From: a virus
Taxonomy: Duplodnaviria > Heunggongvirae > Uroviricota > Caudoviricetes
Virus record (IMG/VR): IMGVR_UViG_2874915312_000001
Reading direction: 5' to 3' (one strand)
DNA: 13,872 nt
The notes under the pieces were generated by a model that was not told the DNA's origin, ran no database searches, and saw only the letters and a program-made list of their open reading frames with translations. Each line of letters starts with the position of its first letter. The first letter of the stretch is position 1. The position numbers were made by a program, and so were the translations under genes. Shown one piece after another: positions 5,715 to 6,317 of this stretch.

Positions 5715-5954
5715 AGCCTCACCTCCGCAAATAACGGATGGCGTAGTTTTACACTGAGAAATGAAAGGGATTTGAAAAGAAAAAAACGCAAAAGCGGGCG
5801 AAACGATATATACAGTAAGGAAAGCACTCTATCCAACAAACCACCCACAGTTAATCGGAATAAAAGCAGAGTGCTTATGAATGATCGCACGCCCGAAGGT
5901 TAGTATTTCTGCACAGCAATTTTGCAAAAAAAGGCGATCATTCATAACTTAAAC

Positions 5955-6000
5955 GTCTTTCAGTCACTCCGGGATTTCCCATCATCGCAGACTGAAAGAC
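5955..6000 (-). terminator. hairpin (11-bp stem GTCTTTCAGTC / GACTGAAAGAC, 24-nt loop) just 3' of the tRNA array
   Basis: Perfect 11-bp inverted repeat at 5955-5965 and 5990-6000. It may be a processing or termination structure for the tRNA transcript; there is no strong U-tract. Confidence 0.25.
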
Positions 6001-6006
6001 TCTGAC

Positions 6007-6081
6007 TGGAGCGGGCAGCGGGAATCGAACCCGCATCATCAGCTTGGAAGGCTGAGGTAATAGCCATTATACGATGCCCGC
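6007..6081 (-). tRNA. tRNA-Gly (anticodon UCC)
   Basis: The reverse complement GCGGGCATCGTATAATGGCTATTACCTCAGCCTTCCAAGCTGATGATGCGGGTTCGATTCCCGCTGCCCGCTCCA folds as a cloverleaf with anticodon loop CUUCCAA, and appears identical to host glyT as I remember it. Confidence 0.85.
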
Positions 6082-6084
6082 ATA

Positions 6085-6160
6085 TGGTGCCGACTACCGG
6101 AATCGAACTGGTGACCTACTGATTACAAGTCAGTTGCTCTGCCTGCTGAGCTAAGTCGGC
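6085..6160 (-). tRNA. tRNA-Thr (anticodon UGU)
   Basis: The reverse complement GCCGACTTAGCTCAGCAGGCAGAGCAACTGACTTGTAATCAGTAGGTCACCAGTTCGATTCCGGTAGTCGGCACCA has anticodon loop CUUGUAA and is thrT-like with two D-loop changes. Confidence 0.85.
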
Positions 6161-6162
6161 GC

Positions 6163-6239
6163 TGGCCCACCACCGAGGACTCGAACCTCGCACCGTCAAC
6201 TTAGAAGGTTGATGCTCTATCCGGATGAGCTAGTGGTGG
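6163..6239 (-). tRNA. tRNA-Arg (anticodon UCU)
   Basis: 77-nt cloverleaf with acceptor CCACCAC/GTGGTGG, anticodon stem TCAAC/GTTGA, loop CUUCUAA, T-loop TTCGAGT and encoded CCA. Confidence 0.8.
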
Positions 6240-6240
6240 T

Positions 6241-6317
6241 TGGTGGCCCTTGCTGGACTTGAACCAGCGACCTGGCGATTATGAGTCGCTCGCTCTGACC
6301 AACTGAGCTAAAGGGCC
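6241..6317 (-). tRNA. tRNA-Ile2 (anticodon CAU, lysidine type; may be scored as Met by software)
   Basis: The reverse complement GGCCCTTTAGCTCAGTTGGTCAGAGCGAGCGACTCATAATCGCCAGGTCGCTGGTTCAAGTCCAGCAAGGGCCACCA is ileX-like. It corresponds to the ileZ-type tRNA of Stx-phage late regions. Confidence 0.75.

Follow-up and report, generated by a model that had tools for sequence, protein, structure and literature searches.

A conserved structured RNA is predicted between the tRNA array and the holin gene of a decayed lambdoid prophage

The IMG/VR virus record IMGVR_UViG_2874915312_000001 (Caudoviricetes) is a stretch of 13,872 nucleotides (nt), analysed here over its full length and termed the window, whose minus strand carries part of the late region of a lambdoid prophage. 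A remnant of the antiterminator gene Q is followed by a tR'-type terminator hairpin, by an array of four tRNA genes and by the holin gene S, which is the order that had been read in an earlier prediction made from the letters of the window without database searches (hereafter the original prediction). The interval of about 290 non-coding base pairs (bp) which that prediction placed between the last tRNA gene, tRNA-Gly, and the holin gene was also recovered. It covers 292 bp (5715-6006) without a conserved open reading frame (ORF): no ORF of at least 60 amino acids (aa) was found in it, and the only two that it contains, of 59 aa and 43 aa, are both interrupted by 1- and 2-nt indels in relatives. 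The array is indeed Ile(CAU)-Arg(UCU)-Thr(UGU)-Gly(UCC), the four tRNAs being called by ARAGORN and all matched by Rfam family RF00005 (56-70 bits, E 4e-10 to 5e-14). The original prediction went further and described the interval as the empty cargo slot of a Shiga toxin (Stx) phage, lying behind a tRNA array of unusual composition. Judged by comparative sequence analysis, the interval instead holds a conserved, predicted structured RNA, with compensatory pairing above that of controls and with no Rfam family. The features of the region are collected in Table 1.

Table 1. Features of the window, listed in the direction of late transcription and followed by two features from the rest of the window.
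Feature	Coordinates	Strand	Basis and remarks
Q antiterminator pseudogene	6517..6773	-	match to PF06530 confined to profile positions 1-53 of 118
Intrinsic terminator of the tR' type, following Q	6406..6430	-	AAACCCGCCTCCGGGCGGGTTTTTT; read from sequence
Putative sigma-70-type promoter of the tRNA operon	6356..6327	-	TTTGCA-18-TATTAT; homologue of the annotated 933W 'pT'
tRNA-Ile2, anticodon CAU (lysidine type, reads AUA)	6317..6241	-	ileZ homologue; ARAGORN, Rfam
tRNA-Arg, anticodon UCU (reads AGA)	6239..6163	-	argN-type body with C1-G72 pair; ARAGORN, Rfam
tRNA-Thr, anticodon UGU	6160..6085	-	host thrU copy, altered at two D-loop positions; ARAGORN, Rfam
tRNA-Gly, anticodon UCC	6081..6007	-	equal to host glyT; ARAGORN, Rfam
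Hairpin 1 of the trailer RNA	6000..5955	-	starts 6 nt past the 3' end of tRNA-Gly; two pairs with compensatory changes
Hairpin 2 (long stem and inner stem)	5947..5875	-	six pairs changed on both sides
Hairpin 3 (outer and inner stems)	5874..5824	-	four pairs changed on both sides
Predicted remnant of the intrinsic terminator of the operon	5799..5775	-	CGCCCGCUUUUGCG and U run; stem of 3 bp in the window
Holin leader	5751..5715	-	ribosome-binding site GGAGG; travels with the holin module
S21-type (P21) class II holin, 71 aa	5714..5499	-	dual start MKSMDK; PF04971, E 1e-35, 121.8 bits
IS66-family element	2708..5463	+	PF01527, PF05717, PF03050; 8-bp target duplication GGTTGAAT at 2700-2707 and 5464-5471
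3' part of mlrA (yehV), attachment junction and 3' fragment of the integrase gene	1..821	-	Stx1-phage integration site

Folded on the tRNA strand, the gap reaches -89 kcal/mol (z = -4.07), a stability attained by 0 of 200 shuffled sequences. RNAalifold applied to 56 distinct homologues recovered three hairpins, which together take up ~180 nt of a predicted structured RNA of ~230 nt, hereafter the trailer RNA. Across these 56 homologues pairing held in 98.4% of the cells, as compared to 40-44% when the partners were slid by 1-3 columns, and changes on both sides of a stem were counted in 14 pairs (156 cells) against 2-5 pairs (2-28 cells) in the slid controls. The strand was assigned as tRNA-sense because numerous conserved G-U pairs fit that strand only. 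An Rfam scan of the gap up to an E-value of 5 returned no family, and the literature on ileZ/argN/argO, on prophage Thr-Gly tRNA arrays and on phage HK639 yielded nothing about the trailer element. Structured non-tRNA RNAs that are co-transcribed with a tRNA cluster, and that lie between the last tRNA and the terminator, are exemplified by 3'ETS-leuZ and by rnaC/rnaD of phage T4. We know of no sequence relation of the trailer RNA to these, and its likeness to the small RNA (sRNA) derived from the 3'ETS is one of anatomy only, namely the succession of last tRNA, structured RNA and terminator.

The first 232 nt of the gap were detected in 536 of 5426 complete Escherichia coli genomes and were unannotated in every one of them; about 10% of complete E. 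coli genomes, plus Shigella flexneri, would thereby hold an unannotated structured RNA of ~230 nt fused to a prophage tRNA operon, at a site where other prophages have toxins or Pas sRNAs. Array, gap and holin gene are contiguous in 498 of the 5426 genomes, and to call the composition of the array unusual was thus an overstatement: the four-tRNA set is a common module, of which the Arg-UCU form and the Thr form with C16 and C20 are minority alleles. The spacing is also fixed. In 96 of the 97 IMG/VR loci having an S21-type holin downstream, this gene starts 289-294 nt from tRNA-Gly, the sole exception being caused by an IS600/IS3 insertion, and in ~120 IMG/VR loci no cargo was found between trailer and holin, the only long interval being that IS600/IS3 insertion. 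When 50,697 phage records were searched with the gap, 8 matched, 0 of them Stx-converting. When the core of hairpin 1 was used to scan genomes representative of species, as an exact-match pattern that limits sensitivity, hits were obtained in E. coli and S. flexneri only, and a profile of the gap revealed no remote copies over the compared loci.

Four active temperate phages, PhiR47_1, vB_EcoS-689R5, vB_EcoM-606R7 and phi467, share with the window the tRNA module, the 292-bp gap (97-98% identical) and the S21 holin. They differ from it in being intact, in carrying Lys-UUU in the second slot of the array and a Thr gene equal to thrU, in having a stronger predicted terminator (-6.6 to -13.7 kcal/mol) and in their Q and early regions. 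In HK639 and a clade of IMG/VR contigs, a diverged copy of the trailer (~75% identical) lies by a partly decayed tRNA-Gly and is followed by unrelated lysis genes. Since these HK639-like copies keep tRNA-Gly despite different lysis genes, the trailer belongs with the tRNA module and not with the holin. The holin leader, which makes up the last 37 nt of the gap, is common to PhiR49_2 and 611R1, both of which are without the rest of the gap. It is to be noted that in HK639 itself the tRNA-Gly which precedes the structured-RNA copy (2437-2500) is half-decayed, with a 3' half identical to glyT and a diverged 5' half; ARAGORN does not call it, and an intact tRNA-Asn(GUU) is situated just before.

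All array types that were inspected have at least one terminator in the interval that separates the final tRNA from the holin. In relatives of the window the trailer terminator consists of a stem of 4-6 bp and a U run and is called by the terminator scan, as in PhiR47_1 and HK639, whereas no call was obtained in the window. The alleles of this terminator (alignment A7, columns 220-236) read GCGGGC, GCGGGT and GCGGTT in relatives, with predicted hairpin energies of -13.7, -11.5 and -6.6 kcal/mol respectively, as compared to GCGTTT and -3.3 kcal/mol in the window. They can be arranged as successive G-to-T changes at the boundary between the stem and the U run, a series that may reflect tuning of read-through or may reflect decay.

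The identity of the tRNA genes was established by comparison with E. coli K-12 and with the Stx2 phage 933W, in which Q, pR', terminators, the promoter pT, ileZ-argN-argO, a terminator, stx2AB, an esterase gene (nanS-p) and S follow each other in this order. The CAT gene of the window is of the Ile2 type, because an identical gene is annotated as tRNA-Ile in RefSeq and because it is identical to K-12 ileY at 70 of 77 positions; its identity to 933W ileZ is 74/77. The Arg gene has the same unusual C1-G72 body as 933W argN (61/77 identical) with the anticodon UCU, not UCG, and is only 46/77 identical to 933W argO, which combines a G1-C72 body with UCU. No argO-type gene is present in the array, and Thr and Gly stand in its place. 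The set departs from ileZ-argN-argO in the missing argO and in the anticodon of slot 2, and it retains ileZ and an argN-type body. As for the two remaining genes, which had been described as near-identical to host thrT and glyT, the Gly gene is identical to K-12 glyT over 75/75 positions, while the Thr gene is of the thrU (UGU) type, with 74/76 positions identical, and only ~63% identical to thrT (GGU). Its sole differences from thrU are U16C (window position 6145) and U20C (6141), both in the D-loop. The array contains neither tyrU nor the host spacers of the tufB operon, and its flanks match the host over 1-2 nt only. On these identities, the array is a combination of two genes of phage lineage (ileZ and the argN-type gene) with two captured copies of the host genes thrU and glyT.

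Among ~110 IMG/VR loci, slot 2 holds Arg-UCU in 12 and Lys-UUU in 65, and in relatives the same body is found with the anticodons UUU or UCG (the latter in 933W) or with aberrant anticodon loops. Such loops are shortened or odd in the HK639-like clade, where the ARAGORN output for slot 2 is '???', Phe-AAA, Leu-UAA or a stop anticodon. In the Lys-UUU form the near-universal U33 of tRNAs is replaced by C33; this form also has an A-C mismatch in the T stem and C16, and it is without the host U39-C40-A41 cleavage context. The Thr gene equals thrU exactly in 80 of 116 loci; its C16/C20 variant accounts for 12 of 116 IMG/VR and E. coli copies, and arrays with Arg-UCU also number 12, a correspondence of totals only. 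Phage SerU-LTIIb carries two further arrays, Arg(UCU)-Gly(UCC) and Thr(UGU)-Gly(UCC) (1122-1275 and 3028-3181), each placed before a copy of the holin gene.

The candidate promoter pT lies downstream of tR' and ~10 nt upstream of tRNA-Ile. Its -35 element TTGxA and its -10 element GTTATTAT are invariant in six lineages with otherwise diverged flanks, and it is called in relatives too. The tR' region is 78% similar to the pR'/terminator region of 933W; hairpins homologous to tR' were called terminators in PhiR49_2 and PhiR47_1, whereas a simple terminator scan made no call at tR' in the window. Alignment to the intact 381-nt Q gene of E. coli O121 201805972 revealed in the window an internal deletion of 124 bp, bounded by direct repeats of 11 bp (GATGGTTATAT) of which one copy is left, at 6614-6624. 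This deletion is private to the window when compared with enteroinvasive E. coli (EIEC) CFSAN029787, O121 201805972 and S. flexneri SFBU1023. The holin, named 'class II holin family protein' in RefSeq, is of a type related to that of 933W (76% DNA identity).

The window thus resembles 933W in the order of its elements, in pT, in ileZ and an argN-type slot 2, in a terminator past the last tRNA, of which the window has a predicted remnant, and in a related holin. It differs in having no argO, stx, esterase or other ORF, the thrU and glyT copies taking the place of argO, and in the UCU of slot 2; 933W, for its part, is without the 230-nt structured RNA.

We consider it probable (about 0.7) that the region is the leader of the late operon in a decayed lambdoid prophage integrated at yehV, and that it holds a self-contained tRNA operon and not an emptied toxin slot. 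In such an arrangement pT, placed downstream of tR', would drive the four tRNAs as an operon of their own. In the lysogen, transcripts from pT would give the tRNAs and would end at the trailer terminator, which would leave the holin silent; upon induction, Q-modified polymerase coming from pR' would pass tR', the tRNAs and the trailer terminator and reach the lysis and late genes. After excision of the tRNAs the hairpins might protect the late mRNA as its 5' end or else persist as a stable trailer RNA. The tRNAs themselves would supply codons that phage genes use 2-5 times more than host genes. Each is indeed a version of a minor host tRNA for an A-ending codon (AUA, AGA, ACA and GGA), and the frequencies of these codons per 1000 in PhiR47_1, as compared to 48 K-12 genes, are 7.1 against 2.7 for ATA, 5.5 against 1.2 for AGA, 12.8 against 4.9 for ACA and 13.0 against 6.7 for GGA. 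Codon supplementation, the classical explanation for ileZ-argN-argO, fits the Ile, Arg-UCU, Thr and Gly set of the window.

Several points weigh against this interpretation. Most of the compensatory changes fall on a single deep split, between the window-like and the HK639-like clade, and the independent events are few, as ~11-13 changes map to one branch and ~4 pairs differ inside a clade; the invariance of the hairpin 1 core follows from its use as search pattern. Strong termination is not strictly conserved, since the alleles reach down to a 3-bp stem, and promoter, terminator and read-through were all deduced from consensus or homology. The codon comparison covers one phage (PhiR47_1) and 48 host genes. 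The Lys-UUU tRNA of most relatives is left unexplained by codon use because AAA is not enriched in the phage (36 per 1000, as compared to 32 in the host genes). Finally, an ancestral cargo could have been lost through clean replacement of the module.

The alternative with the best claim to attention, which we regard as a distinctly minor possibility, is that the array is chiefly an anti-defence device replacing tRNAs that are hit by PARIS AriB, P2 Old, Gifsy-1 HepS, PrrC or toxSAS enzymes such as FaRel2. PARIS AriB cuts the E. coli tRNAs Lys(UUU), Thr(UGU) and Asn(GUU), and U16C in the D-loop of tRNA-Lys impairs this cleavage (PMC12409363); P2 Old, the agent of P2-lambda interference, cuts tRNA-Thr(UGU) (PMC12445682); Gifsy-1 HepS, which is triggered by lambda-type tail-tip proteins, cuts Thr tRNAs (PMC13043305); and FaRel2 modifies tRNA-Gly and tRNA-Thr according to the title of a cited paper. 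The targets of AriB, Old and HepS overlap the Lys, Thr and Asn tRNAs of these prophage arrays, given that the trailer is linked to Ile-Lys(UUU)-Thr(UGU)-Gly in the 65 loci mentioned above and that Asn(GUU) is found in HK639 and in the prophage JLK-2012. Moreover, it is exactly at U16C and U20C that the Thr of the window departs from thrU, the Lys-UUU variant likewise has C16 and is devoid of the host cleavage context, and this same Lys-UUU is the tRNA for which codon use offers no explanation. However, copies identical to a host gene cannot be resistant variants, which applies to Gly and to the Thr of the 80 loci equal to thrU; the Thr of the window retains the AriB site UAAUC|A; in published data, cells were protected little or not at all from P2 Old by an additional host tRNA-ThrU; and codon supplementation suits the tRNA set of the window well. 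A narrower version, simple replenishment by host-identical tRNA-Thr against P2 Old, was rejected on those published data, in which host tRNA-ThrU fails to rescue.

Phage T5 provides a precedent, in that its phage-borne tRNAs with UUU, UGU and GUU anticodons neutralise PARIS, and C16 is present both in the Thr of the window and in the Lys-UUU of relatives. In contrast to the prophages considered here, T5 is virulent and has many tRNAs, and mutations at positions 39 and 41 of its tRNAs are proven to confer resistance; in the prophages, the AriB site of the window Thr is intact, and Gly and most Thr copies are the same as the host genes. There is nevertheless a striking overlap between the tRNA sets tied to the trailer RNA and the tRNAs cleaved by defences against lambda-like phages that were described of late, an overlap that supplies a concrete hypothesis for why temperate coliphages keep ordinary copies of host tRNAs, and an anti-defence role of prophage tRNAs is a live hypothesis. 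More speculatively, the whole module might be a lambdoid counter-defence device and not an aid to codon usage. Its variable tRNAs, namely Lys-UUU or Arg-UCU on an argN-type body that evolves fast, Thr-UGU (with U16C in the window), Asn-GUU (in HK639 and JLK-2012) and Gly-UCC, would replace the tRNAs destroyed or blocked by the PARIS AriB, P2 Old, HepS, PrrC or toxSAS systems of rival P2, P4 and Gifsy elements. The three-hairpin RNA fused to tRNA-Gly would be a functional RNA of this device, not described before, that might serve as a decoy or sponge for nucleases or stabilise the late-mRNA 5' end after tRNA excision; we put this forward as a rather unlikely extension.

It is similarly doubtful that the three-hairpin RNA is a trans-acting sRNA cut from the tRNA precursor at its 3' end, with regulation or sponging as its main role and not insulation or mRNA stabilisation. 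Its anatomy, in that it begins after the final tRNA and ends in a terminator followed by a U tract, and a structure conserved with covariation would both suit such an sRNA. Known candidates for comparison are the Pas sRNAs (PasA/PasC/PasD) of enteropathogenic and enterohaemorrhagic E. coli, which also occupy the Q-to-holin interval of lambdoid prophages, by holin-lysozyme operons, and end in a terminator hairpin; PasA, PasC and PasD1 adjoin such operons (bioRxiv 10.64898/2026.05.13.724894). The Pas sRNAs differ in measuring 80-240 nt and in lying beside esterase, TerB and DUF3927 genes, whereas the trailer RNA is fused to a tRNA array. No similarity was detected between the gap and the four Pas loci of E2348/69 (PasA-D, located by the RIL-seq coordinates in the supplement of PMC8550237) using blastn at word size 7 and nhmmer, and we accordingly discarded the gap as a Pas homologue. 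Two further findings speak against an sRNA: no conserved single-stranded seed was found, and many alleles, that of the window among them, have an eroded terminator and Hfq-type 3' end.

That the prophage once carried stxAB or another cargo between the tRNAs and S, and that the 292 bp are the remainder of a deletion, is highly improbable and already close to refuted. The position itself was correctly identified. The gap corresponds to the stx site because the prophage occupies the yehV site, has an integrase end of the VT1-Sakai type and is, over part of its early region, 89% identical to an Stx1a phage. In more detail, the left end of the window, with its attachment site and matching integrase, is 97.8% identical to VT1-Sakai (whose record annotates the yehV attachment site and int) and to YYZ-2008, and also matches JLK-2012 and BP-4795, and the segment 7057-11571, which bears replication and antirepressor genes, is 89% identical over 4.5 kb to the Stx1a phage Stx1_14040. 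The equivalent interval is filled with stx2AB and the esterase gene in 933W and with tciA, tciB and yjhS in JLK-2012. The latter, a yehV-integrated, stx-negative prophage of E. coli O55:H7, resembles the window in its attachment site and integrase end (~97.5-97.8%) and in having Thr(UGU)-Gly(UCC) downstream of Q; it differs by an array Asn-Thr-Gly followed by 3.1 kb of cargo before S, and by the lack of a trailer homologue. Strong decay of the window by insertion sequence (IS) elements and deletions would also be in keeping with a lost cargo.

The sequence of the gap tells otherwise. In comparisons by blastn (word size 7) and by an nhmmer profile with 933W, Stx1_14040, PhiR49_2, JLK-2012 and the LT-IIb phage, matches were confined to the 37-nt holin leader. 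No stxA or stxB lies between Q/tR' and the holin, to judge from the absence of ORFs of at least 60 aa and of any similarity to the stx regions of 933W or Stx1_14040, and by the same two methods the gap shows no similarity to the flanks of stx1/stx2, of the esterase gene or of tciAB. Deletion scars, which the original prediction had proposed to look for, were thus not found in this alignment. The 292-bp unit is moreover present in the active, stx-negative phages PhiR47_1, 689R5 and phi467 and in ~10% of E. coli, at a constant distance to S; the structure of the gap is kept by compensatory change; and in the Stx1a relatives Q is a different one and the interval from Q to stx1 is devoid of tRNAs. 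As far as the data can show, this lineage never carried cargo at this position. The position and the phage family named in the original prediction were right, while emptying or loss of cargo has left no sign, and the presumed empty Stx slot is mostly deflated to a late-leader module that is normal and widespread among lambdoid phages lacking stx. In the LT-IIb enterotoxin prophage fragment, the toxin genes are located after the endolysin gene and not in the tRNA-to-holin interval.

It is scarcely credible that a small protein is made from the gap. The candidate for this, the ORF of 59 aa (5890..5711), ends in an ATGA that joins its stop to the start of the holin gene, and this ORF was rejected as a gene, given the frameshifting 1- and 2-nt indels in relatives (A7 columns 151, 172-173, 231, 233 and 240-241), the complete divergence of the HK639-like clade past hairpin 3, the lack of any PGAP annotation there in the 536 genomes and a GTG start buried in a hairpin arm with no visible ribosome-binding site.

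The window as a whole is a remnant of a prophage in a Shigella/EIEC-type genome, at the Stx1-phage site yehV; the closest genomes are the enteroinvasive-type E. coli CFSAN029787, O121 201805972 and S. flexneri SFBU1023. Besides the deletion in Q, the 463-aa replicative helicase gene is split by an in-frame stop codon (8302-8304, minus strand) into ORFs of 134 and 327 aa, the gene being intact in O121 201805972. The IS66-family element is inserted ~30 nt inside a ydfR-like gene that follows the holin, and an IS600 end abuts it at 2699; the rest of the lysis region and the structural region are gone as a result of this insertion with its abutting IS600 end. With the Q deletion, the helicase stop codon, the IS66 insertion and a terminator stem reduced to 3 bp, the prophage is dead, and at most its pT-driven tRNAs could still be functional. 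In O121 201805972 an IS911 copy lies no more than 2 nt from the IS66 insertion site of the window, and this site may be an insertion hot spot.

Two observations concern the early region of the window. Two copies each of the C4 antisense RNA (RF01695, 80 bits) and of isrK (RF01394, 62 bits) were found at 11335-11523 and 11991-12179 on the minus strand, a doubling that corresponds to a tandem duplication in the Rha/ash antirepressor region. At 12219-12882 on the plus strand, in the direction opposite to that of the phage early genes, a Gp49/HigB-like gene (PF05973) and a helix-turn-helix/Xre gene (PF01381) overlap, and the pair looks like a toxin-antitoxin module.

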